DNA from: a virus
Length of the DNA stretch: 64,000 nucleotides
Reading direction: 5' to 3' (one strand)
IMG/VR virus record: IMGVR_UViG_3300032174_000075
Coordinates: 1-64,000 of that record
Shown piece after piece: positions 1-63,252 of the stretch (positions within the stretch are counted from its first letter, which is position 1; each line of letters starts with the position of its first letter). The translations under genes were made by a program, and so were the position numbers. The notes beneath the pieces are model-generated. The model saw only the letters and a program-made list of their open reading frames with translations, had not been told where the DNA came from and ran no database searches.

Positions 1-288
1 GATCCGACCACGCGCAACCGCCAGGGCAACGACATCGGCACCAGCTATCGTTCCGCGATCTTCTATGCCGATGACGAGCAGAAGCGGATCGCCGAGGATA
101 CGATCGCCGATGTCGACGCGTCGGGGCTGTGGCCCGGTAAGGTGGTGACGCAAGTCGCGCCCGCCGGCGACTTCTGGCAAGCCGAGCCCGAGCATCAGGA
201 CTATCTGGAGCGGATTCCCGACGGCTACACCTGCCACTTCATCCGCCCGAACTGGAGATTGCCGGTTCGGCGCAAGGCCGCTTCCTAG
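1..288 (+). CDS. msrA: peptide-methionine (S)-S-oxide reductase, C-terminal part (runs off left edge)
   Basis: Frame 1 reads [21 protein letters not shown]...[12 protein letters not shown]...GYTCH, matching the MsrA signatures RQGND.G..YRS and AE.EHQ.Y; TAG at 286-288. Confidence 0.95.
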
Positions 289-353
289 GAGTTCGCCGGC
301 GGCTTCGTGCAACGCCGCGGCGCGGCGGCTATGCTGACGGCAACGGTGCGGCG

Positions 354-1610
354 ATGACGGCCATGGAACTGTTCGAGCGGCTGGGACTGGCGCTCGCCAT
401 CGGCCTGCTTTTCGGGGTCGAACGCGGCTGGCAGGAGCGCGAGGGCAAGCCCGGCTCGCGCGCCGCCGGCATCCGCACCTTCGCGCTGATCGGCCTGCTC
501 GGCGGCATCTGGGGGTTGCTCGCCCAGGTCGCCGGCGACGTCGTGCTGGGACTCGCGGCGCTGGGCTTCGCCGGCTGGTTCGGGTTCTTCCAATGGCGCG
601 AGACCGAGTCGGTCGGCAGCCACTCCGCGACCGGTTTCGTGACCGGCCTGCTGGCCTTCGCGCTCGGCGCCTATGCGATGGTGGGCGACAAGGCCGCGGC
701 CGGATCGGTCGCGGTCGCGGCGACCTTCATCCTGGCGGAGCGCCAGGCGCTTCACGGCTTCCTCGAGAAATTGAAATGGGTCGAGCTGCGTGCCGCGCTG
801 ATGCTGCTGGTGATGACGTTCGTCCTGTTGCCGGTTCTTCCCGACGTCGCGATCGACCCTTGGGGCGCCGTCAATCCGCACCAGCTCTGGCTGCTGAGCA
901 TCCTGACCGCGGCGATTTCCTATGCCGGCTATCTCGCCGTCAACCTCGCAGGCGCGCGCAAAGGCCTGCTCTACGCCGGCGCGGCCGGCGGACTGGTGTC
1001 GTCCACGACGGTGACCTGGACCTATGCGCGCCTGTCGCGGCAGAACGCGCAGGGCCGCACCGATCTGGCGGTCGGGATCGTCGCCAGCTGGACGGTGTCG
1101 CTGATCCGCATGACGGCGATCGCCACCGCGCTGGCGCCGTCGCTGGCGATTGCGCTTGGCGCCCCCGTCGCTGCGGCCGTCTGCGTCACGCTCGCGAGCC
1201 TCGTGCTGCTCTATCGCCGCTCGACGCAGCAAGGTGCGGCCGTCGAGCTCGCGCTGACCGACCCGTTCGACATCTGGACGATCCTGCAGTTCACCGCGCT
1301 GCTGGCGGTGGTGATGCTCGCCGCGAAGGTGCTTTCGGCCGGCTTCGGCGAGGGCAGCCTGCTGGGCCTTGCGGCGCTGTCGGGCCTGGCCGACGTCGAT
1401 CCGATCACGCTGTCCATGGCGAAGGACGCCGGCTCGAGCGTGGCGGTGGAGCAGGCCGCGCTCGTCATCCTTGTCGCCGCGGCGGCGAACCTGGTCGCCA
1501 AATGCGCTCTCGCCGCGTCCTTCGGCGGCATGCGCTTCGCCGCGCCGCTGGCCGCCATCGCGTCGCTCGCCATCGTCGCGGCCGGATCGGTGGCGCTTTT
1601 CCTGCGCTGA
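354..1610 (+). CDS. MgtC/SapB-family, DUF4010 multi-pass membrane protein (host)
   Basis: GLLFGVERGW...AGIRTF MgtC motif, GGLVSST and GLADVD DUF4010-type motifs, many TM segments, host-like high GC3. Confidence 0.9.
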   Translation: MTAMELFERLGLALAIGLLFGVERGWQEREGKPGSRAAGIRTFALIGLLGGIWGLLAQVAGDVVLGLAALGFAGWFGFFQWRETESVGSHSATGFVTGLLAFALGAYAMVGDKAAAGSVAVAATFILAERQALHGFLEKLKWVELRAALMLLVMTFVLLPVLPDVAIDPWGAVNPHQLWLLSILTAAISYAGYLAVNLAGARKGLLYAGAAGGLVSSTTVTWTYARLSRQNAQGRTDLAVGIVASWTVSLIRMTAIATALAPSLAIALGAPVAAAVCVTLASLVLLYRRSTQQGAAVELALTDPFDIWTILQFTALLAVVMLAAKVLSAGFGEGSLLGLAALSGLADVDPITLSMAKDAGSSVAVEQAALVILVAAAANLVAKCALAASFGGMRFAAPLAAIASLAIVAAGSVALFLR

Positions 1611-1751
1611 TCAGGAGGCGGGATGACGCTTGCAGAAAGCGGATTTTGCGACCTTGGCAAGGACGGGACAGGGCGCGGTCGTCGCAGCAAGAAACTGCGC
1701 AAGCCCCGTTCAGGCACTCAGGGAGCGTCTGAAGGGGAAACCCTCCCGCCC

Positions 1752-1807
1752 AGGTGTGCTTGCTGCACAATGGAGCGCCTGTTCGGCATCAGGTAGCAAG
1801 CACACCT
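1752..1807. repeat. 24-bp imperfect inverted repeat around an 8-bp core (end-mimic / CGCCTGTT / IS left end)
   Basis: Reverse complement of 1752-1775 (CTCCATTGTGCAGCAAGCACACCT) matches 1784-1807 (CGGCATCAGGTAGCAAGCACACCT) at 18/24, and the 13 distal bases are identical. Confidence 0.85.
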
Positions 1808-1867
1808 AACCGACCGCTCTGCCACTATCGGTTTACATACCCGTCAGACTCGCAATAAAGCTGCGCC

Positions 1868-2650
1868 ATGAGCGAAAGCTATTGGCGACTAGTCCTGCGC
1901 GATGCCGCTGACCATTGGAGCGGCGAAACGTTCGATCATTGGGGCCGCCGGTTGATAGGCTATATCGTCGAATCCGCTATCCTATTCCTGATCCTCTTGA
2001 ATCTCCCGATTCTGGGAGACGTGCAAGGCGAGGAACGGCTGGCCGTTGCGGGCGCGCTGGCCGCTATCGGTGGTGGTGGACTTTTGTTTTTGTTTGACCT
2101 TGTGACCGCTCCGAAGCGGCTGCACAGAGCTATGGAAACGCGCCTACGTGTGAGACACGACATAATTCTCAACTTTTGGGATTCCGAACGAAGCCTGAGA
2201 ATCCTGGATGTCCTGCAAACGGAGGGAAGGAACGTCTATCGCGATCTGAGTGACATCACGCGGTATGAAGATCGATTCAATGCGTGGGATGAAAAGGTAG
2301 TGGCAGTTCTAAAAGCCGGGTTTTCGATAACCACGCTATACGACTACCAGAACAGCTATGGTGGCGTGTCGGGAATGCTGGGCGGCTATTATAAGATCGA
2401 CAACCTTGACGCCGAATGGGAAGAAAAAAATCAGGAATTGTTAGCTAGGTTCTCGGCACGTCTTGAAGCGCTCGTGGATCTGATAAAGCGCGGCGGCGGC
2501 GTATATGTCGGGCCTATAATGGCTATCCGCGAAATGCTGCACGACGAAGAACAACAAGGGCTCGCGCCCCTTCCGGATGCGACGAGCGACATGAATACGC
2601 TATTAAGCATTGCGGAGGACAAACAGCACGACGCATCCCGTCCTACGTGA
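1868..2650 (+). CDS. IS passenger: two N-terminal TM helices plus helical C-terminal domain, unknown function
   Basis: 260-aa ORF, lower GC than host, two hydrophobic segments. Confidence 0.7.
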   Translation: MSESYWRLVLRDAADHWSGETFDHWGRRLIGYIVESAILFLILLNLPILGDVQGEERLAVAGALAAIGGGGLLFLFDLVTAPKRLHRAMETRLRVRHDIILNFWDSERSLRILDVLQTEGRNVYRDLSDITRYEDRFNAWDEKVVAVLKAGFSITTLYDYQNSYGGVSGMLGGYYKIDNLDAEWEEKNQELLARFSARLEALVDLIKRGGGVYVGPIMAIREMLHDEEQQGLAPLPDATSDMNTLLSIAEDKQHDASRPT

Positions 2651-2873
2651 GGCGTAGATCGCGGACGCCGATTGCCTCAAGGCATTGCAGGAAATAGGCA
2701 GCGGTAAAAGCCCCACGCGACAGCTTGTTGCGGACATTGACTTCCTTTTCATCAACCCCGATTTCAGCCAGTTTTTCGACCAGCGCTCCGTAGGTCAGCC
2801 CGTGCCTTTTTAGTTCTGATTTCAATAGGTTAGCGGCCCTGGCGTTCCAGTCCACTTTTGGAGCTTTTGCCAC
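2643..2873 (-). CDS. small HTH regulator (DUF6471-like), divergent from the transposase
   Basis: W...A.NLLKSELKRHGLTY..L.EKL...GV.E.E.N..NKLSRG.F.A.YFLQCL pattern. Confidence 0.8.
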   Translation of the reverse strand: MAKAPKVDWNARAANLLKSELKRHGLTYGALVEKLAEIGVDEKEVNVRNKLSRGAFTAAYFLQCLEAIGVRDLRLT

Positions 2874-2976
2874 GTATCACCTATAGTAAAAGAAGTATCG
2901 AATACAGTATTTATGCCCTTGTATTGGCCACGTCAACGTACTACATTCGTTACAGACGTAACGGATTTAGTACCAA

Positions 2977-3948
2977 ATGGCGCAGCACTTCCTTCTAAGC
3001 ACAAAGGCCCGGACGCTCAGTCTGGCAAAGGTGCTGCGCCTTTCGGATCAGGAAGCGTATGACGCCTTCCGGGCGATCCGCTGGGCCGATAACGACGGCA
3101 AACCCTATTGCCCGAGGTGCGGTTGCGTAACGGTCTATGAGTTCGAGACGCGCAAGATTTTCAAGTGCAAGGGATGCCAGTCGCAATTCTCGCTTACGTC
3201 CGGGACGATCTTCGCGAGCCGGAAGCTCAACGTGCGCGACATTCTCGCCGCTATCGCAATCTTCGTGAACGGTGCGAAGGGCTACAGCGCGCTCCAATTG
3301 AGCCGCGATCTCGACGTACAGTACAAGACGGCCTTCGTTCTCGCGCACAAGCTTCGCGAAGTGCTCGGCAAGGAACAGGAAGCGGCGAAGCTCAAGGGCG
3401 ACGTTGAAATAGACTCCGCGTATTTCGGCGGATACGTGAAGCCTGCGAACATCAAAGAGCATCGCCTTGACCGCCGCTTGCTCGAAAACAAATCCGGCAA
3501 GCGCCAGTCCGTTGTCATCGTGCGGGAGCGCAACGGTAACTCGCTTCCGGCAGTCTTCAAGTCGGAAGGCGCGGCGCTGGCCTGGATCAAGAGCCGGATC
3601 AGCCTGGGAACGGTCGTGAACGCCGACGATGCGAGCGGGTGGAACGATCTAGCGTCCAAATACGAAATGAAGCGCATCAACCATCAAGAGGCGTATTCAC
3701 TCGACGGCGCGTGCACCAATCAAGCCGAGTCGTATTTCAGCCGCCTGCGTCGCGCAGAAATGGGTCATCACCATCACGTCAGCGGGCCGTACCTGCTTCG
3801 CTATGCCCAGGAAAGCGCGTGGCGCGAGGATGCCCGTCGCGTCGATAACGGCGCCCAGGTCCGCCGCGTGACGGAACTGGCGTTAAAGCGTGGGCCGTCA
3901 GTGGACTTCAGCGGCTACTATCAGCGCCACGTCAGGGCGGCGGGTTGA
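2977..3948 (+). CDS. IS1595-family DDE transposase
   Basis: Zn ribbon CPRCG...CKGC, SLTSGTIF, HTH SALQLSRDLDVQYKTAF, catalytic VEIDSAYFGG / NADD / NQAESYF; TTGTAT-17-TACATT promoter-like motif at 2919-2947. Confidence 0.95.
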   Translation: MAQHFLLSTKARTLSLAKVLRLSDQEAYDAFRAIRWADNDGKPYCPRCGCVTVYEFETRKIFKCKGCQSQFSLTSGTIFASRKLNVRDILAAIAIFVNGAKGYSALQLSRDLDVQYKTAFVLAHKLREVLGKEQEAAKLKGDVEIDSAYFGGYVKPANIKEHRLDRRLLENKSGKRQSVVIVRERNGNSLPAVFKSEGAALAWIKSRISLGTVVNADDASGWNDLASKYEMKRINHQEAYSLDGACTNQAESYFSRLRRAEMGHHHHVSGPYLLRYAQESAWREDARRVDNGAQVRRVTELALKRGPSVDFSGYYQRHVRAAG

Positions 3949-3980
3949 GCCAACAAAATTGGTGCTATCATGCTTCAGGC

Positions 3981-4547
3981 TTACTTGCTCGTGCTCGCGT
4001 CAGTTTTTGTAATGGGCGCGACAGTCACATGCCTCTTAATGGTGATCCGTCTATCGCGAATACTGAGCGTCCTGCTAGATATTCGCAGCTCAATTTCAAC
4101 CGTTCCGCTCGACCACCCCAGCGGCGGTGTGAAATAGAATTGATGGGGGAGTGCATCACCCCAAGTAAGTGGCACCCTTCGTTCTGAGCCGACCGGGTCG
4201 ATAGTCCATTGCAAAGGCAATTTCCGGTGCGGGCTGGGGAAGTATTCTAGGCGTCCGCTCATATAGTCCTCACGACAGATCGTCATTTTAGATGGTCTAA
4301 CAACGCGGATGGAATCTAAGACTATTGTTTCGTAGCCCATGTTTCTGGCAACCACCCGGAGACCTAGCAGCCCAGCGTGCTTGGATTTTCCCCACTCGAA
4401 ATTCGCTTCGATTATTGGATCATCGCGCCGCCTGTCGCGGCGAAGAGAAAGCCAAGCAAAAAGCCCCGTGAGAAAGGCCGCAATGCCTGTGATCGCGGTC
4501 GAAACTGCCGTAATCCAATTCGGAAGGTCTTGAGGGTTCTGAGCCAT
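3981..4547 (-). CDS. IS passenger: single N-terminal TM protein with beta-rich domain
   Basis: 188-aa ORF with TM (WITAVSTAITGIAAFLTGLFAWL), convergent with the transposase. Confidence 0.65.
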   Translation of the reverse strand: MAQNPQDLPNWITAVSTAITGIAAFLTGLFAWLSLRRDRRRDDPIIEANFEWGKSKHAGLLGLRVVARNMGYETIVLDSIRVVRPSKMTICREDYMSGRLEYFPSPHRKLPLQWTIDPVGSERRVPLTWGDALPHQFYFTPPLGWSSGTVEIELRISSRTLSIRDRRITIKRHVTVAPITKTDASTSK

Positions 4548-4603
4548 TAATTCGTCAACCTAATGGTCGGTCGGTGCTGGCGCAATTCGGGCCGCGCCTG
4601 TCG

Positions 4604-5029
4604 CTAGGGCAACGCCCAAACCCTCGCGCCCTTCAGCTTTCCGGCGTCGGCAATCTGGCCCCGTAAGTGCTGGGCGCGCATGGCCTGTACGATCTTGAAC
4701 GCCACGGCCGTCGCCAGCACCTTGTCGCGCGCGTCCAGGCCACTCGCTTTCATGGCACGTTCCGCCAGCGCCCGCGTGCAAAGCGGCCCCTCGTCTCTCA
4801 GGAAGCCCTTACAGAGGACCATGAGCCCGCCGCGCTTCCATATCCGGTGAATGTCCACATAGGCCAGCATGTCGGCGTGGTCGCCGCTGGCGTCGAATAT
4901 GGCGATAGCGGCGGTTATGTGGGCGAGATCGGCTCGGGCCTGTTTCAGCCGCGCCTCGTAGCCGACTATGGCTTTCTCTATTTCGACCCTCTTTGACCGG
5001 AGTGTCGTGACGGTTCGAATCTCTGCCAC
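4604..5029 (-). CDS. hypothetical coiled-coil plus winged-helix-like protein
   Basis: 141-aa ORF, N-terminal heptads, wHTH-like C-terminus ending RVWALP. Confidence 0.6.
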   Translation of the reverse strand: MAEIRTVTTLRSKRVEIEKAIVGYEARLKQARADLAHITAAIAIFDASGDHADMLAYVDIHRIWKRGGLMVLCKGFLRDEGPLCTRALAERAMKASGLDARDKVLATAVAFKIVQAMRAQHLRGQIADAGKLKGARVWALP

Positions 5030-5033
5030 GGGC

Positions 5034-5288
5034 CTAGGGCGCCTCGACGATGGCCCATAGCCGGTGCTGGCGGGTGCCGGTCATGGCGACGCCGCGACCT
5101 TCAAGCCGCCTCAGACAGCGCCGGACCTGGCCTGCCACCAGCGGCAACGAGGCGTCGCCATAGCCCACGATCCGCACGACCGAGGCGACAACCTCGACGG
5201 TCGGGACAGGTGCCGGGGAGCGCCGTAGGGCCGTCGTGACAGCCTGGGCTAGCGATGCGTTCTCAAGGCGGGTGCGGTTCCTCGGCAT
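5034..5288 (-). CDS. small winged-helix-like hypothetical protein
   Basis: 84-aa ORF co-oriented with and abutting 4604-5029. Confidence 0.5.
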   Translation of the reverse strand: MPRNRTRLENASLAQAVTTALRRSPAPVPTVEVVASVVRIVGYGDASLPLVAGQVRRCLRRLEGRGVAMTGTRQHRLWAIVEAP

Positions 5289-5407
5289 TGCGCCAAGGTA
5301 GAGGGTGGCCTAGATTCTGGCTTCACCCTTTGCGCCAACATACCGGATTTTCGATCTAATCGCGAGTGCGGAAAATCAATTCTCTATCAAGGTACTAGGA
5401 ATTAAAC

Positions 5408-5737
5408 GTGGCACAGCGCGGAAATCCTCATCCTACAGGCGGCAAGCCGGACAAAAGGATGCGCGATGCCTTGATGATAGCCCTTAACCGAGAGGCTGTA
5501 GATAACGAAGGCCGGCCGACTAAGAAACTCTCCTTGATCGCGGACAAGCTGGTGGACTTGGCTATTGATGGCGATGTTCAGGCAATCCGCGAGATTAACG
5601 ACCGGATAGACGGCCGTTCCATTCAGGGCATCAGCGTGAATGATGGTGCGGGCATGAAGATCGTAATCGAGGGCGGTTTGCCGCAGGAAACGGATGCGCC
5701 CCCCGTAGACGACTCACTCGCGAACATGCGTGGCTGA
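5408..5737 (+). CDS. terS: terminase small subunit (putative)
   Basis: GNP..GGKP N-terminus, GDVQAIREI.DRIDG motif, overlaps the terL start. Confidence 0.75.
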   Translation: MAQRGNPHPTGGKPDKRMRDALMIALNREAVDNEGRPTKKLSLIADKLVDLAIDGDVQAIREINDRIDGRSIQGISVNDGAGMKIVIEGGLPQETDAPPVDDSLANMRG

Positions 5738-7001
5738 AGCCAGGGTCATCCTGCCGACTTTTCACAGGGCACAGGCAGAGATTTACCGGAACCGTGCGCG
5801 CTTCAATGTTCTTCGCTGCGGGCGCCGGTTCGGCAAAGACATCATGATGATCACGATGGCTGCGGACGATGCGGCCAGGGGCAAGAGGGCGGGGCTGTTC
5901 GCCCCCGAGTACAAGCAGCTCATCGAACCATTCGACGCGTTGGACGAGATACTGGCTCCGATCAGGAAACGGGCCAGCCGCAACGAAGGGTCGATCAGGA
6001 CGAAATCGGGTGGCGTTGTCGATTTCTGGTATCTGGATGACAACGAGTTGGCGGGACGTGGTCGAGAATACGACTGCGTCTACATCAATGAAGCGGCGTT
6101 CTCCAAATCACCCGACACGATAGACATTTGGAAGAAGTCGATCCGACCAACGCTTTTGACCCGCCGTGGCTCTGCCTGGGTCTTTGGCACTCCAAAGGGT
6201 ATTGACCCGGAGAACTTCTTCTACGCGTGCTGCACCGATCCGAAATACGGGTTCAAAGAGTTCCACGTACCGAGCAACGCCAATCCCTATGTTCCCCCGG
6301 AGGAGTTTGAACGGGAACGACTGTCGAATGATCCACTGATCTTTCAGCAGGAATTTCTCGCGGAATTTGTGGATTGGAGCGGGCATGCGTTCTTCGAGCG
6401 GGACAAACTGCTTGTAGACGGACAGCCAGTCAAAGCGCCCACACAGTGCGATGCGGTGTTCGCGGTGCTGGACACCGCCGTCAAGACTGGCAAAGAACAC
6501 GACGCCACAGCCGTTCTGTTTTGTGCGCGGTCTCGATTTGGCGGACACCCGCTGGTGCTGCTGGACTGGGATATTCTGCAAATCGAGGGCTCGCTGCTCG
6601 AAACCTGGCTTCCCACCGTCTACGAGAGATTGGAGAGTTTCGCGAAGGCGTGCGGTGCGAGAATGGGATCGCTCGGGGCTTTCATCGAGGACAAGGCCAG
6701 CGGAACGATCCTACTGCAACAGGCGGCGCGTCGCGGCTGGCAGGCCAGGGCGATAGACTCAAAGCTTACCGCAGTCGGTAAAGACGAGCGCGCCATTGCG
6801 GTGTCGGGGCATGTCTACAAAGGCATGGTGAAGCTGAGCGATCAGGCGTTCACGAAAACCTCGACATACAAGGGCGCTACCAGAAACCATCTCTTAGGCC
6901 AGGTCATAGGCTTCCGCATCGGCGACAAGGACGCTACGCGCCAAGACGATTTGCTCGACACGTTCTGCTATGCGGCGGCTATAGCTTTGGGGGATGAGTG
7001 A
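5730..7001 (+). CDS. terL: terminase large subunit
   Basis: Walker A CGRRFGKD, GRGREYD..YINEAA, motif III GTP, QQEFLAEF, nuclease DTA.K.G..HD and DDLLD. Confidence 0.95.
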   Translation: MAEARVILPTFHRAQAEIYRNRARFNVLRCGRRFGKDIMMITMAADDAARGKRAGLFAPEYKQLIEPFDALDEILAPIRKRASRNEGSIRTKSGGVVDFWYLDDNELAGRGREYDCVYINEAAFSKSPDTIDIWKKSIRPTLLTRRGSAWVFGTPKGIDPENFFYACCTDPKYGFKEFHVPSNANPYVPPEEFERERLSNDPLIFQQEFLAEFVDWSGHAFFERDKLLVDGQPVKAPTQCDAVFAVLDTAVKTGKEHDATAVLFCARSRFGGHPLVLLDWDILQIEGSLLETWLPTVYERLESFAKACGARMGSLGAFIEDKASGTILLQQAARRGWQARAIDSKLTAVGKDERAIAVSGHVYKGMVKLSDQAFTKTSTYKGATRNHLLGQVIGFRIGDKDATRQDDLLDTFCYAAAIALGDE

Positions 7002-7874: not shown

Positions 7875-9386
7875 ATGGCGACCATCAATATCCAGGGCTC
7901 CAGTCTTGGGAATGCGCTCCAAGACCTCTTGATGGCGGATGACCTTGAACCGGGCGATGGTCCCGCCTACGCGACGTGCAAAGCTATATTCTCGTACCAT
8001 CCGCTCGGCCAGAAGATCGCCGACGCTCCGGTGGCCATGGCGATGAGTCAGGAAAGGAGAATCGCCGTCCCCGGAAGCCCCGAAGAGCGCGTCGTAGACA
8101 GGTTCAAGAGAACCTGGAAGGCGATGGGGATTGACCACCATATCTTCAACACGAAGCGGCTGTCACGGGTCTATGGCATCGCTTCCGTGGCGATGGTGGC
8201 GGATGGCGTAACCCCTAGCGAGCCGATAGAGTATGACCGGCTTCCTACTCTCAATCTCTCGTTCAACGTGATCGACCCGCTGAACTCGGCAGGCTCGTTA
8301 GTTCTCAGCCAGGACCCGAATGCGATAGACTTTCAAAAGCCGGGAGCGATTACAGTCAACGGCACGGCCTATCATCCTTCCCGCACCTGTACAGTGCTGA
8401 ACGAGGACCCGATCTATCTGGACTACACGCGCTCCGCCTTCGGGTACGTCGGGCGCTCGGTCTACCAACGGGCTCTATTCCCGCTCAAGAGCTTCATCAA
8501 CACCATGCAGACGGACGACATGGTGTCCCGCAAGGCGGGGCTGCTCATCGCGTTCATGAAGATGCCGGGCTCGATCATAGACGGCATTATGGCTGCGGTA
8601 GCGGGTGTCAAGCGTGCCCTTCTTCAGCAAGGCGTCACTGACAACGTTCTCTCCATGGGGAGTGAGGACAAGGTCGAGAGCCTGAATCTGCAGAACATTG
8701 ACGGCGCCTCTAGTGCAGCCCGCCGAAACATCCTGGAGAACATCGCCTCGGCTGTGCCCATGCCGGCGAAGCTTTTGCTTCAGGAAACCTTCGCAGAAGG
8801 CTTTGGCGAGGGCACCGAGGATGCAAAATACATCGCCCAATTTATCGACCGCATCCGTATCGAGATGCAGCCTCTCTACGACTACTTCGACCCTATCGTC
8901 ATGTACAGAGCATGGACGAAGGATTGGTACGAGACGATCCAGAAAGATTTTCCCGAAGAGTTCAGTGGGGTAGACTTCACGACGGCCTTCTACCGCTTCA
9001 AGAACGCATTCACGGCCGTGTGGCCGAACCTGCTTGAGGAGCCGGAAAGCGAGAAGGTCAAGATCGACGAAGTGCGACTGCGCGCGCTGATCTCGATTGT
9101 TCAGGTCCTCATTCCGAACCTCGATCAAGCAAACCGCGCAACCGTCATTCAAACAGCGCTCGACAACATCAACCAGAACAAGGTGCTGTTCCAATCTCCC
9201 TTCGTGCTGGATTACGATGCCTTGAAGAAGTACGAGCCTGCTGAAGCGGAATCCGATACCGGAAGCCCACGGCCCTATACAATCGCCGACAGCGATCCCG
9301 TCAGATCAGCCCTGGACAGCCTCTCGGCCTCTGTTGCAAGACTGCCGGATCGCCGCACAGCCCCCAAGCGGATCGCCGCGCAGTGA
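7875..9386 (+). CDS. portal protein (DUF1073 family)
   Basis: 503 aa after terL; HPLGQKIADAP, SRVYG, YHPSR, G.SVYQRA and F.EGTED motifs. Confidence 0.88.
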   Translation: MATINIQGSSLGNALQDLLMADDLEPGDGPAYATCKAIFSYHPLGQKIADAPVAMAMSQERRIAVPGSPEERVVDRFKRTWKAMGIDHHIFNTKRLSRVYGIASVAMVADGVTPSEPIEYDRLPTLNLSFNVIDPLNSAGSLVLSQDPNAIDFQKPGAITVNGTAYHPSRTCTVLNEDPIYLDYTRSAFGYVGRSVYQRALFPLKSFINTMQTDDMVSRKAGLLIAFMKMPGSIIDGIMAAVAGVKRALLQQGVTDNVLSMGSEDKVESLNLQNIDGASSAARRNILENIASAVPMPAKLLLQETFAEGFGEGTEDAKYIAQFIDRIRIEMQPLYDYFDPIVMYRAWTKDWYETIQKDFPEEFSGVDFTTAFYRFKNAFTAVWPNLLEEPESEKVKIDEVRLRALISIVQVLIPNLDQANRATVIQTALDNINQNKVLFQSPFVLDYDALKKYEPAEAESDTGSPRPYTIADSDPVRSALDSLSASVARLPDRRTAPKRIAAQ

Positions 9387-37429: not shown

Positions 37430-37617
37430 TGCCTCTTCAACTCCTGTATCCTCTCCAGCGCCTCCATGAGGGCGATGATCTGGGGGGATGGTGAGCGTAA
37501 TCCGGTTTCCATTTCTCGCACTCGCTTGTTCGGGCTTTCGAGGCGGAGCTTTTCGCCGAACTGAGTCACGGATAGCCCGAGGCGGAGACGGAGCGCGCGG
37601 ATTTCAAAAGGGGTCAT
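37426..37617 (-). CDS. Xre/HigA-like HTH protein
   Basis: MTP.EIRALR.RLGLS..QF...L......V..ME.G.R.PS; ATGA overlaps on both sides. Confidence 0.8.
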   Translation of the reverse strand: MTPFEIRALRLRLGLSVTQFGEKLRLESPNKRVREMETGLRSPSPQIIALMEALERIQELKRQ

Positions 37618-39344
37618 TTGAATGCTGCCTCCGCTAAGGCCATGACCTTCTCCCGATAGGTTTTGGGCCGGCCTTCGTCAGTAGGCGGCAGAACAGTCAT
37701 AAGCGTTGCTTTCTCTGCGTCAAAAACAATTCGCACATTTTTACCCCGCACTCGTATCCATCCCTCGAAAGCGTAGCCGTGATCATCGCCTTTGTGCGCC
37801 GACTTCACACCAGACACTCTTCCTTCTGAGACCGCCGCGCGCATCTCCCGGTTTACAGCCGTTGTCCATTTGATCCCATAGCGCTCTTCTAATCTGGCAT
37901 GATTGTGCAACGTGCCATCGTCTAAATGCCGCAACTGTTTGGGGTCGAGATTCTGGAGAATTTCCTCGGCGTCAAAATAATCTACGTATTGATCATCTTT
38001 CATATGTAGACGGCGCTGTTCGTCGCGCACCTGATGATGGTAGACATCATCGACCTGTGATGGCGGATAGAAGCGGTGGTCAATCGCATCCCAAGCGCGC
38101 CGTTTCTCGTTCATCTGCTCGACGCGCCACTCATCTTGAGAAATCGACGCTTCAAGGCGGTCATATTCATCGCCGTCATTCTCGGCAGTTAATGACAGCG
38201 CGTGACCCGCTTGTTCAAAATTTTCCCTATAGAACTTCGTCACAAACCAACGGACGTTTGTCTGCTTGGCCTTAAGTTCGGCTATCGTGACGCGTCCTTC
38301 TAGCATCGCCAGCATAATCTCTTGTACGATATCGGAGCGCATATGAGGCGGGATAGATTTTGGTATAAGAGAGTTCGCTTCCAAGAGATCGGCGTGCTCG
38401 TCACGAACCTTCGCGATATATGGAAACTGTAGCAGTTCGGCGCCAGCATGATTGTGAAGGCGAAGGACCTTCTTGGGCTGCGGCAATATTTGCCGCCAAG
38501 TATATGACGGCTGAAAGCCCTTATCGAGAGCGTACCTCACGATTGATTGCGGAGAACGCCCAAGCGCATTTGCCGCTAATTCGACGTTCGCATTGTTCTC
38601 ACAGAACCTTTCAAGCGCAGTCTTTTCGGATTGAGTCCACCAAGTTCGCGTACTCATCCAAGCGCCGCCGACGTAGCGGTTTTGCCCTATTTCGTAATTG
38701 TGCGCTCTGGCGTCTCGCTCTGCGAACATGAAAGAGCGAAGCTTTTTACGGGCTGTGCAAGAACTTTTCTTCCCATAGCCGACATGCGCCTCTAAAACTT
38801 TCCCCCACGATGATCCGTTATTTACATCGTTGATCGCAACGATGGTCATAAGAACCTGCTTCCACGTCAGTTTTGTGGCGCGAAACGGCGTGCCTGATGT
38901 AAGTGAGTAACTGTACCCGCATCTCTGGCACTTAAAGAGGTGCCTCCCCGTATCTCTCGTAATATGATAGCTCACCCCATGGGCGCACTCTGGGCATATC
39001 GGCTCTCCGTCGGTTTCTGGCCAACGAAGCTGTTTGAAAAGTTCGCGAGCCGCCCATTCCGAAAGAGGTTCAATCGCCTCTGGAGTGAGGGCCTTTGCGG
39101 CAGGGCTAGTCATGAAAGCGCTGCCGGAAGTGTAGCAAGAGCGGCATACTCCAATGCTGCCGGGAAACTTATTGGCCCCACATTTTTTGCACGTTGAATA
39201 TGCTTCTTCTCGGTCCTCCTTAAGGAGATTTGCTGCGTCGCTTTCATTTGCCGCCAATATGGCGTTGTTCGATATAAACGCGCCGCCGTGTTCCTTGTAG
39301 AGCGGCTTACGGCCTTTGTTGTGTCGCGACCTACGCGTGCCCAT
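37614..39344 (-). CDS. multidomain protein: Zn finger, IS1595-type Zn ribbon/HTH (no DDE), Myb/GcrA-like HTH, sigma-like segment, RelE-like domain
   Basis: LRWP..DGEPICPEC...FKCQRC..SLTSGTPF aligns with both transposases in the window; see findings. Confidence 0.7.
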   Translation of the reverse strand: MGTRRSRHNKGRKPLYKEHGGAFISNNAILAANESDAANLLKEDREEAYSTCKKCGANKFPGSIGVCRSCYTSGSAFMTSPAAKALTPEAIEPLSEWAARELFKQLRWPETDGEPICPECAHGVSYHITRDTGRHLFKCQRCGYSYSLTSGTPFRATKLTWKQVLMTIVAINDVNNGSSWGKVLEAHVGYGKKSSCTARKKLRSFMFAERDARAHNYEIGQNRYVGGAWMSTRTWWTQSEKTALERFCENNANVELAANALGRSPQSIVRYALDKGFQPSYTWRQILPQPKKVLRLHNHAGAELLQFPYIAKVRDEHADLLEANSLIPKSIPPHMRSDIVQEIMLAMLEGRVTIAELKAKQTNVRWFVTKFYRENFEQAGHALSLTAENDGDEYDRLEASISQDEWRVEQMNEKRRAWDAIDHRFYPPSQVDDVYHHQVRDEQRRLHMKDDQYVDYFDAEEILQNLDPKQLRHLDDGTLHNHARLEERYGIKWTTAVNREMRAAVSEGRVSGVKSAHKGDDHGYAFEGWIRVRGKNVRIVFDAEKATLMTVLPPTDEGRPKTYREKVMALAEAAFK

Positions 39345-49061: not shown

Positions 49062-49988
49062 TCATGCAGCCCGCTTCCGAATTGGGTCCTGATACATCAA
49101 CCGTGCGCCTGCGCTAAGTGCAATCGCCTTCATGGTTCGCTCCGCGTCCGAACTCTTGCGCTCGTTCCAGCGATAGGAGAACTCGTTGCAGTAGCGGTGC
49201 AGGTGGGTCTTGCTGACGCTGTGGAATGAGCCGGTGATACCGCGCTTAAGCAGCGCGAAATAAGACTCCGCATCGTTTGTCGAGACGCCGTCGCGGGCAT
49301 ACTCGAACTTCGCATGATTGACCGTCTCGTGGCCGCCCTCGAACCACTTGCCCACGCCACGATAAGAAATGAGCTGGTCGGTCTGGATTTGCGAAGACGG
49401 ATGCACATTGTTGCGGATCGCGTCTTGCAACGTCTTGGCGGTGATATTCGCAATCGGCCAAGAGCGGACGCGCCCGCCACGCTCGACCAATGCGACGACG
49501 GGAGCCTTATCGGTCCCGCGACCTTCCTTGGACTTCTTGCCGCTATGTTTGCGCGGCTTGCCGCCGACATAGGTTTCATCCGCGACCACGATGCCTTGAA
49601 GGAGCCCCTTCAATGGATTTTGCGCCATCGCGTGCCGGATGCGGTGGTTCAAGTGCCACGCGGTGCGATAGGAACCGAGGCCAAGCTGGCGCTGCAATTG
49701 AAGGGCGCTTACGCCTTTCTTTGAAGAACACATGATCGAGAAAGCCATGAGCCAAATCCTGATCGGAAGGTGCGAGGCTTCCATGATCGTGTTCACGGTG
49801 ACGCTGAATTGCTGCGCGCAGCCATTGTTGCATTTCCAAACGCCGGGACGATGCTTCTTGCCCTTGAATTTTGTGTGGCCTTCGACGCAGCCGCAATGCG
49901 GACAAACCGGACCCTTCGGCCAGACGATGCCCTCTAGCGTTTCGCGGGCTTGATCTTCGGTCATTTTGGACAGTTCGGAGAGGTTCAT
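49062..49988 (-). CDS. IS1595-family DDE transposase (second, distinct subgroup)
   Basis: CPHCG...WKC...C, SKKGVSALQLQRQLG, VVADETYVGG, IQTD, TNDAESYF, HLHRYCNEF. Confidence 0.95.
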   Translation of the reverse strand: MNLSELSKMTEDQARETLEGIVWPKGPVCPHCGCVEGHTKFKGKKHRPGVWKCNNGCAQQFSVTVNTIMEASHLPIRIWLMAFSIMCSSKKGVSALQLQRQLGLGSYRTAWHLNHRIRHAMAQNPLKGLLQGIVVADETYVGGKPRKHSGKKSKEGRGTDKAPVVALVERGGRVRSWPIANITAKTLQDAIRNNVHPSSQIQTDQLISYRGVGKWFEGGHETVNHAKFEYARDGVSTNDAESYFALLKRGITGSFHSVSKTHLHRYCNEFSYRWNERKSSDAERTMKAIALSAGARLMYQDPIRKRAA

Positions 49989-50056
49989 CGGTTCGGCCCT
50001 TGATCGTGTATGCAGTATGTAATACATTCGAAGCCGTTGTCAAGCGGAGTGCATAC

Positions 50057-50275
50057 ATGGATTTCAAGAAAGCTACCGATGAGTTGCTGGCCGGGATCAG
50101 CCATCAGGAATTGGCGGATGCCTTGGGCTGTTCGGTGCCAACCGTGCGGCAGGCCAGGCTGGACGAAGGCGCCAAGGCCCGCAGGAGCCCGCCAGAGGGC
50201 TGGCAGGCGGTTGTGGCGAAGCTTGCCAAGGCGCGGGCGGCTGGGCTCCTACGGCTCGCGGGTCGGCTCCAATAG
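50057..50275 (+). CDS. small HTH protein divergent from the transposase
   Basis: SHQELADALGCSVPTVRQAR HTH; GGAG RBS. Confidence 0.75.
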   Translation: MDFKKATDELLAGISHQELADALGCSVPTVRQARLDEGAKARRSPPEGWQAVVAKLAKARAAGLLRLAGRLQ

Positions 50276-62340: not shown

Positions 62341-63252
62341 CTAATCAGTCCAACTGACCGTACCGACAGGCGTTGTCCCGTTCGCTTCGTGCTGCGCCAT
62401 TTCTTCGATGTAGGCGAGCGCCCAATCATCCGGGATCGCGCCGTAGTTCTGCTGCGGCCAGCCAGGATGCGACATGTCGTGGATCAAAGAGGCCGCTCCA
62501 GCAAAACCGTATTTGTCTTTCAGCTTCCATCCGGCGGCACCAGCCATGTTCACGAGATGGCCAGCCGTGCACATTGGCGTGTTGCAGATATTCGGCTCCG
62601 GCGTCGGGCGTTCTGGCCCGAAGGTCGATTGCTTGAATGCCCGCTTCTTCGCTTGAATGTCAGCCAGAAGATGCGTGTAGGGTTTTTCGAGGACAGGGAT
62701 ATCTCCGAACGCCGCTCTCAGGGCGCTCGGGGTCCAGCCCGCCGCGATCAGGGCGCTCGGGGTCCAGCCCGCCGCTCTCAGGGCGCTCGGGGTCCAGCCC
62801 GCCGCTCTCAGGGCGCTCGGGGTCCAGCCCGCCGCTCTCAGGGCGCTCGGGGTCCAGCCCGCCGCGATCAGGGCGCTCGGGGTCCAGCCCGCCGCGATCA
62901 GGGCGCTCGGGGTCCAGCCCGCCGCTCTCAGGGCGCTCGGGGTCCAGCCCGCCGCGATCAGGGCGGAGAATTGGCGGCTCGCCATCAAAGCCAATTCGTG
63001 CCGTGTAAATTCCTTCGCCATTGTCATTCCTCTCTCGCCTGAGTGGGCGGGGGGGGGGTAGGCTAGAACGTCGTTGTCGTTATATTTTCCGGCTGGGCAT
63101 GTCGTGAAGAAATGCTCCTCGACGCCACGCCTCATAACTGCCATGTTGACAATCGCGTCGGCGTTCTGCTCGCTCTTGTTTCTTTCAAGAACGCGGACGT
63201 GATGCGGCGCCCTGATCTCCACTTCGATCACGTCAACCATGGACATCTTCAT
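62341..63252 (-). CDS. repeat protein (AAGWTPSAL[R/I])x8.5; probably two genes joined through a C10 run
   Basis: Internal RBS and ATG at about 63027; C-terminal C.TPMC.AGH domain. Confidence 0.65.
   Translation of the reverse strand: MKMSMVDVIEVEIRAPHHVRVLERNKSEQNADAIVNMAVMRRGVEEHFFTTCPAGKYNDNDVLAYPPPAHSGERGMTMAKEFTRHELALMASRQFSALIAAGWTPSALRAAGWTPSALIAAGWTPSALIAAGWTPSALRAAGWTPSALRAAGWTPSALRAAGWTPSALIAAGWTPSALRAAFGDIPVLEKPYTHLLADIQAKKRAFKQSTFGPERPTPEPNICNTPMCTAGHLVNMAGAAGWKLKDKYGFAGAASLIHDMSHPGWPQQNYGAIPDDWALAYIEEMAQHEANGTTPVGTVSWTD
62711..62965. repeat. 30-bp tandem repeat, 8.5 copies, two variants
   Basis: GCCGC(TC/GA)TCAGGGCGCTCGGGGTCCAGCCC; order on + strand R I R R R I I R I(partial). 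Confidence 0.97.

Follow-up and report, generated by a model that had tools for sequence, protein, structure and literature searches.

An ISNha5-like transporter insertion sequence of the IS1595 family at the join of host and phage DNA in a metagenomic viral contig

What kind of junction links host and phage DNA in a metagenomic provirus whose phage carries no recognisable integrase? The question is raised by IMG/VR virus record IMGVR_UViG_3300032174_000075, a contig of 74,820 bp; its first 64,000 nucleotides are called the window here, and the 10.8 kb beyond the window were also analysed. A first-pass annotation of the window, made from its letters alone, had seen a host tail meeting an end of an IS1595-family insertion sequence (IS) and had suggested that the transposase picks an end-like chromosomal site and serves as the integrase of the phage. 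According to our analysis, the element at the host/phage join (1784-5345) is a transporter IS (tIS) that resembles ISNha5. Since host and phage are linked only through this IS, the junction is an IS junction and not an attachment (att) site. The cargo IS adjoins a decayed, end-like sequence of the host at a distance of 8 bp. Probably it is present in two places, the chromosome and the phage, and the path of the assembler ran through this 3.6-kb repeat.

An insertion sequence between the host tail and a closed phage path

By its ends and gene content, the segment 1784-5345 is one tIS of 3,562 bp that belongs to the IS1595 family and is ISNha5-like. A position matrix derived from the ends of 112 distinct relatives was used to score 149,340 contig positions; position 5345 on the minus strand ranked first and position 1784 on the plus strand second. 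The view that 1784 is a true IS terminus was therefore upheld, also by an independent Logan assembly that branches at exactly this position. At the other side, exact copies of an 18-mer of the right repeat came from 72 stretches of metagenome DNA and 3 of viral DNA, and DNA homology to six independent metagenomic elements (loci L093, L064/L101, L095, L075, L060, and L084) stops at 5345-5347. The two small genes next to this end are conserved inside the elements of relatives. At least nine relatives encode a homologue of the 141-aa protein downstream of the transposase gene and before the right repeat, namely those in L025 (twice), L030, L036, L208, L210, L212, L215, and L217, and the DNA from 4603 to 5347 is 82.7% identical to L093; an Atlas search with this protein returned only 'hypothetical protein' clusters. 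The 84-aa protein has 71% amino acid identity to its counterpart in L213, and its start codon is kept at about 57 nt from the right IS end across many of the 72 loci. Taken together, the two top-ranking ends, the stop of homology, and the position of both genes inside relatives' elements delimit the element to 1784-5345.

The first-pass annotation had placed the right end at 4594, followed by a near-copy of the 8-bp core. Position 4594 ranks 32,941st of the 149,340 positions, and the genes at 4604-5029 and 5034-5288 would fall outside an element that ended there. The stretch 4571-4602 (GCCG, then CGCCTGTC at 4595-4602) is a chance resemblance; it immediately precedes the stop codon of a gene that relatives carry inside their elements, and, allowing at most one mismatch, the 8-mer CGCCTGTT occurs 42 times on the plus strand of the contig.

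From left to right, the element contains the left repeat, a 260-aa cargo open reading frame (ORF), a DUF6471 gene, the Zn-ribbon/DDE transposase gene, a 188-aa ORF, the two conserved small genes, and the right repeat (Table 1). Five ORFs beside the transposase gene within 3,562 bp correspond to a tIS of several kb with passengers. The family assignment follows from a DDE_Tnp_IS1595 domain matched over its whole profile (PF12762, E 1.2e-34, positions 1-153 of 153) and from a Zn ribbon at residues 23-70 (PF12760, E 5e-13). The DUF6471 gene is a conserved partner in this lineage, being found at the same position in 12 of the 17 relatives from viral contigs and in most genome copies. The element is bounded by terminal inverted repeats with the tips CGGCATC and CGGTATG, the commonest tips in relatives being CGGTATT or CGGCATT. 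Each of these ends agrees at 6 of 7 positions with CGGnnTT, the form of ends in the ISNha5 group according to ISfinder.

Relatives of the transposase share 56-72% amino acid identity with it overall. The 17 relatives in viral contigs (56-65%) lie in units of 1.6-7.1 kb, mostly 3-4 kb, and their bounding repeats have the form CGGyATTATGTAGCAA. In the family of the host, 44 of 201 sampled genomes contain such relatives, with 1-3 copies each; the 201-genome tallies, here and for the host tail below, include unpublished genomes (G110 for the host-tail search, G110 and G115 for the transposase), and no sequence-level claim rests on them. Among relatives whose repeats are at least 20/24 identical, 17 of 23 are flanked by perfect 8-bp duplications; this set was drawn from contigs of viral and metagenome origin as well as from host-family chromosomes. 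The lineage thus makes 8-bp duplications. In PMC8101967, the IS1595 family is described by 8-bp duplications and a Zn-ribbon and DDE transposase, with ISNha5 as one of its groups, and PMC11891212 cites ISNha5 as a tIS with regulator passengers; both papers cite Siguier, Gagnevin and Chandler 2009. Compared with the ISNha5 group, the window IS is alike in its Zn-ribbon and DDE_Tnp_IS1595 transposase, its repeats starting with CGG, the 8-bp duplications of its relatives, its size of several kb, and its passengers, which include small regulator-like proteins; it is unlike the group in that this copy has heterologous ends and no duplication.

The last 127 bp of the contig (74694-74820) are identical to 1784-1910 at 127 of 127 positions, and the contig contains no other long repeat except a tandem decapeptide-coding array. 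The largest k-mer in common use by metagenome assemblers is 127. The identical contig end gives the assembly the shape of a 'lollipop', in which a 1,783-bp host tail enters a closed path of 72,910 bp (1784-74693). This ring consists of the IS and a 69.3-kb tailed-phage genome, with the IS between the NusG-like antiterminator gene and the terminase genes. A 58-kb prophage with its end beyond 64 kb, as first supposed, was not what the complete record contained; it closes as a ring instead.

Both junctions of the ring were recovered in the independent assembly, which consists of Logan contigs (k=31) from soil run X1, probably the source sample. Record 7 (326 nt, depth 5.1) spans 1488-1813 unbroken and stops at 1813, record 8 (50.6 kb, depth 14.8) begins exactly at 1784, and a third contig enters 1784 from sequence equal to contig positions 74660-74689, that is, across the ring junction. 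Thus, the passage from host DNA into 1784 and the closure of the ring are both real in the reads. Record 8 also crosses 5345 unbroken, which was not used as evidence either way. Its break at about 52.3 kb was considered as an exit to host DNA and dropped, no repeat or end-like motif being present there. When 18-mers from the two ring flanks were searched in viral contigs, one gave a single chance match devoid of further homology and the other gave none, so that no IS-free variant of the phage was retrieved.

Insertion beside end-like sequences

The host tail ends in a decayed family end that faces the IS. As the first-pass annotation had noticed, 1752-1775 matches 1784-1807 in inverted orientation at 18 of 24 positions, 13 of them consecutive, with exactly 8 bp between the two. 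The perfect 13-bp arms are AGGTGTGCTTGCT (1752-1764) and AGCAAGCACACCT (1795-1807), and a perfect inverted repeat of 13 bp inside 60 bp is beyond chance. At the tip of this fossil, the CGG of the family is mutated and reads CTCC outward-in, while the subterminal sequence of the family is kept (19/24 to an end in L025). The fossil 24-mer had no match in metagenome contigs, and the 24-mer of the left repeat had none in viral contigs. A miniature inverted-repeat transposable element of 100 bp at 1676-1775 was considered and rejected, because its left candidate end scores at matrix background and the stretch has no copy elsewhere.

The spacing recurs among relatives. In a set of about 170 ends from 92 loci, family ends that face each other within 60 bp were exactly 8 bp apart in 3 of 3 strict cases; L038 and the window add two. 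The 8 bp of the L037 spacer, CAGGCTTC, are found again beyond the distal end of its neighbour, a non-autonomous element of 1.4 kb, so that the spacer is the target duplication of this neighbour. The neighbour (L037 2703-4130) is a 1.43-kb derivative with a DUF6471 gene, no transposase gene, and a perfect 8-bp duplication, and the full element is found 8 bp away from it. A different placement was seen beside tRNA genes, which were located 5-8 nt (mostly 6) from the IS end in 12 of 19 cases in metagenome loci (L040, L043, L068, L072, L073, L075, L077, L085, L090, L094, L095, and L097) and also adjoin copies in genomes (L207 and L213). These genes encode tRNAs for Arg, Gln, Met, and Glu, and the tRNA 3' end always points toward the IS. 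In the chromosomal copies L207 and L213, the final two tRNA nucleotides lie within the 8-bp duplication.

The host tail itself was placed by similarity. Positions 343-1641 are 81% identical to a metagenome-assembled genome of Rhizomicrobium sp., and positions 1-280 match many genomes of the same family at 75-84%. Among the 201 host-family genomes, none closer than 81% keeps the intergenic region, and no empty host site was retrieved. In run X2, a contig from a host about 92% identical keeps 1695-1783 and then departs from the window, its next 84 bases showing no fit beyond 1783. This related host lacks 69 nt corresponding to 1626-1694, which are intergenic and downstream of the membrane-protein gene. 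The lack of phage cover in run X2 was left out of the evidence.

The facing ends found only at 8 bp, together with the copies adjacent to tRNA 3' ends, support the idea, already raised by the first-pass annotation, that this IS lineage may choose sites beside end-like sequences; the duplication that forms the L037 spacer and the departure of the X2 host exactly after 1783 point in the same direction. In the mechanism that we propose, an 8-bp staggered cut would place the element immediately next to a family end that is already present, here the decayed fossil in the host intergenic region; other family members insert 6 nt past tRNA 3' ends. A transposase bound at the resident end may direct strand transfer into the adjacent 8 bp. 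A second copy of CGCCTGTT would probably be expected beyond the host-borne IS copy, at a place that the contig does not reach.

End-targeting IS such as IS30 insert next to a copy of their own end, giving abutted right and left ends. The window lineage is like IS30 in inserting beside an end of its own type. It is unlike IS30 in that the spacer has the length of the 8-bp duplication, the partner may be a dead fossil end, and the enzyme belongs to another family. No description of the strict placement of this lineage, 8 bp from an end and 6 nt from a tRNA, was found in the literature searched.

How the host tail and the phage are joined

In the assembly, the left flank of the IS is host DNA in one path and phage DNA in the other, and the right flank is phage DNA. 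The contigs obtained from short reads fit two separate IS copies and a cointegrate alike. We favour separate copies because relatives are overwhelmingly simple insertions with duplications, the phage is about three times deeper than the host tail in run X1 (14.8 compared with 5-7), its GC content is 12 points lower, and no association of the IS with terminase borders recurs. With respect to GC content, the host tail (1-1783) has 69% and the phage (5346-64000) 57%, and the IS (57.5%) is like the phage; the value falls from 69% to about 57% at the junction of fossil end and IS and never returns to host level within the contig. This gap argues against a long-resident prophage. A survey of the kind proposed in the first-pass annotation, for IS1595 elements at the borders of related large terminase (terL) genes, found a single IS1595-type gene in the 78 terminase loci and a single homologue of the small terminase gene (terS) in the 92 IS loci. 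The IS is native to the host lineage, which is taken as further support for two copies. That these copies are physically separate, and in which order the events took place, is inferred.

Several observations weigh against two ordinary copies. The window IS has no 8-bp target duplication in either context, its left flank being CGCCTGTT on the host side or GAAATGTG in the ring and its right flank GATTTTCG. Its two repeats are identical at only 10 of 24 positions (20-24 of 24 in relatives), which makes this copy atypical. The identity of the host-linked and phage-linked IS was directly demonstrated for 127 bp only. A host-right junction, consisting of the right repeat, CGCCTGTT, and host DNA, was not seen in the Logan contigs, where record 8 is unbroken at 5345. 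Finally, the likeness of the X2 contig to an unoccupied site is judged from where the alignment stops.

Some of these points can be accommodated. The absence of a duplication in the ring as well as in the host/phage context suggests that the flanks of the window IS have been reshuffled and, given the duplications of the lineage, derive from different contexts. The left repeat and the host fossil end share a subtype, and the right repeat is of the widespread CGGTATGTTGGCGCAAAGGG subtype, which is that of the closest transposase relatives. Accordingly, the window IS has the appearance of a recombination product of two family members. Short low-coverage tips may be clipped by an assembler, and at about 5x host depth the unseen host-right junction is uninformative.

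A tentative possibility is that the contig represents an IS-bridged prophage, that is, a cointegrate with the order host, IS, phage, IS, host, in which the IS would be the integration module of an integrase-less phage. Two routes are conceivable: the IS carried by the phage could transpose replicatively into the 8 bp adjoining the fossil end, or a chromosomal and a phage copy of the IS could undergo homologous recombination, for which the RecT and exonuclease encoded by the phage might be of help. The order in the contig, namely host, CGCCTGTT, left repeat, right repeat, phage (5346-74693), and left repeat, is exactly that expected if the phage was the donor, and the host-IS, IS-replicon, and replicon-IS junctions are all present, which is equally expected from two separate copies. 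The host-to-IS junction has full host depth, no empty-site branch occurs in X1, and no integration or maintenance function other than the IS was found beside RecT and the exonuclease. According to PMC5704250, MTnSag1 and tISCpe8 have DDE enzymes of IS1595 type as their integrases, and MTnSag1 is reported to form a circular intermediate. However, since this explanation predicts the same short-read junctions as separate copies, nothing favours it, and it has to contend with the depth, the GC content, the simple insertions of relatives, and the terminase survey given above. We consider it unlikely that a 69-kb phage that lacks an integrase, a partition system, and a protelomerase lysogenises in this way, by replicative IS transposition beside a fossil end.

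Systems with partial likeness to such an event are known. A circular replicon and a chromosome with a common IS can fuse, as in the formation of Hfr strains by the F plasmid or the integration of P1 at IS1, giving the order chromosome, IS, replicon, IS, chromosome; the window is alike in its compatible set of junctions and differs in showing nothing beyond that set. MTnSag1 and tISCpe8 are mobilizable elements that use an IS1595-type DDE transposase as integrase and have 25-bp repeats and 8-bp duplications (PMC5704250). The likeness lies in an enzyme of IS1595 type moving a unit larger than a plain IS. In contrast to the window, these are 2-5 kb resistance elements moved by conjugation, and nothing here indicates that the enzyme moves a 69-kb phage.

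An ordinary site-specific prophage, in which 1784 would be the edge of an att core and the recombinase too divergent for detection, is very improbable. The host tail and the ring do share sequence rightward from 1784, as attL and attP would, and the 13-bp dyad resembles recombinase binding arms. However, a conserved IS repeat seen in dozens of unrelated contexts begins at 1784, the X2 relative enters no shared core after 1783, and arms 30 nt apart are too far from each other for a recombinase core site. No att repeats flank the phage at two host junctions; the contig has one host junction, and its sole long repeat is the 127-bp ring overlap. Searches for four recombinase families in six frames detected no recombinase, nor did Pfam scans of 30 ORFs, for the most part large ORFs that flank the ring junction or lie in the early region. 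The statement that the phage lacks a tyrosine or serine recombinase was thus confirmed: PF00589, PF00239, and PF07508 were absent from six frames of the 74.8 kb, and control genomes were positive. The same holds for the rve transposase (PF00665), ParB, and protelomerase. A Mu-like phage is likewise not indicated, with no PF00665 and no end-like sequence at 74693.

Scarcely credible is the original model, in which the transposase would move the whole phage by means of the end at 1784 and a right end past 64 kb that has the same repeat and 8-bp core. In its favour are the authenticity of the end at 1784, the end-like host sequence next to it, and the lack of an integrase in the searches. Against it, the 74,820-bp contig returns to 1784, the proper right end is at 5345, the extremity at 74693 is at background (rank 93,342 of 149,340), and the ring contains no inverted copy of the left repeat elsewhere. 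Of the two parts of that proposal, the choice of an end-like site is supported, and the role as whole-phage integrase acting through a distal end is not.

Other genes of the phage and the meaning of the junction

With the right end of the IS at 5345, the phage begins 63 bp before the ORF taken as terS, and not 0.8 kb before it as previously annotated; this ORF has no family match. The structural module is common to 78 viral contigs identified as terminase relatives, and the region upstream of terS is not shared. In addition to RecT and the exonuclease, the ring encodes methyltransferases and, just before the ring junction, the NusG-like antiterminator. As judged from the searches given above, this is a phage that carries no recognisable integration or plasmid-maintenance gene.

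A second IS1595 transposase, mentioned by the first-pass annotation, does exist, and a third lies beyond the window. Both have about 25-30% amino acid identity to the first and no DNA similarity to it, and no convincing candidates for terminal repeats were found around either gene. The second gene is accompanied by its own divergent small HTH gene (50057-50275, 72 aa); it is 266 nt from the 3' end of a phage tRNA-Pro (50293-50383) and may be a decayed or domesticated unit. A 576-aa protein encoded at 37614-39344 on the minus strand has only the IS1595 Zn ribbon (residues 95-144) and no DDE domain, so that the phage has three transposase-type genes and one derivative in total. Outside the window, a perfect 17-nt inverted repeat at contig 68747-68763 and 72926-72942 (L004 6747-6763 and 10926-10942) encloses 4.2 kb that include the third IS1595-type gene and code for a trypsin-like protease and methyltransferases. 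Within the replication/recombination module, the protein encoded at 62341-63252 on the minus strand has a Decapeptide repeat region (PF25296), for which 30-nt tandem repeats at about 62710-62930 code.

Table 1 Features of the window and of the adjoining part of the contig
Feature	Position	Strand	Remarks
Host chromosome tail	1-1783	+	Conserved gene fragment 1-288; 418-aa membrane-protein gene 354-1610
Fossil IS end	1752-1775	-	Right-end orientation, outer tip 1775; matrix rank 121/149,340
8-bp spacer CGCCTGTT	1776-1783	.	Probable insertion target; length as in L037, L038, L051, and L053
Transporter IS, IS1595 family	1784-5345	+	Both ends are the two best family-matrix scores; size and gene set as in relatives of 3.0-4.6 kb
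Left terminal inverted repeat CGGCATCAGGTAGCAAGCACACCT	1784-1807	+	IMG/VR and Logan contigs both branch at 1783/1784
Cargo ORF, 260 aa, no known family	1868-2650	+	Region of 52% GC; matched by neither Pfam nor PHROG; homologues absent from the elements of relatives
DUF6471 gene, 76 aa	2643-2873	-	PF20075, E 2e-28; divergent from the transposase gene
Transposase, 323 aa, Zn ribbon and IS1595-type DDE	2977-3948	+	PF12762, PF12760, phrog_25593 (E 9e-70)
Cargo ORF, 188 aa, no known family	3981-4547	-	No Pfam or PHROG match
Conserved accessory gene, 141 aa, no known family	4604-5029	-	Homologues inside relatives' elements
Conserved accessory gene, 84 aa, adjoining right end	5034-5288	-	DNA homology to L064/L101, L095, L075, L060, and L084 ending at the IS terminus
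Right terminal inverted repeat, tip inward CGGTATGTTGGCGCAAAGGGTGAA	5322-5345	-	Top matrix score in the contig
Probable small terminase subunit	5408-5737	+	By position only; overlaps the terL start; homologues upstream of terL in L113 and L036; no PHROG match
Large terminase subunit	5730-7001	+	Annotated large terminases from phages of Pantoea, Yersinia, and Klebsiella are about 50% identical
Portal protein	7875-9386	+	phrog_146, E 1e-50
Second IS1595-type gene	49062-50027	-	Divergent from the first; no terminal repeats found
Third IS1595-type gene	70573-71463 (contig)		Outside the window

The host-virus junction of a metagenomic 'provirus' can be an IS common to two replicons, which matters mainly for annotation: since the junction may be a shared IS, neither lysogeny nor host assignment can be read from it without long reads. 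A cointegrate, if true, would be a route to lysogeny that needs no integrase, with a cargo IS doubling as a phage integration module whose target is guided by sequence. For the IS lineage itself, a site selectivity as strong as that seen here, with insertion exactly 8 bp away from a resident end or about 6 nt downstream of a tRNA gene, is unusual for an IS with a DDE transposase and would make the lineage tractable for studying how a simple transposase is targeted.

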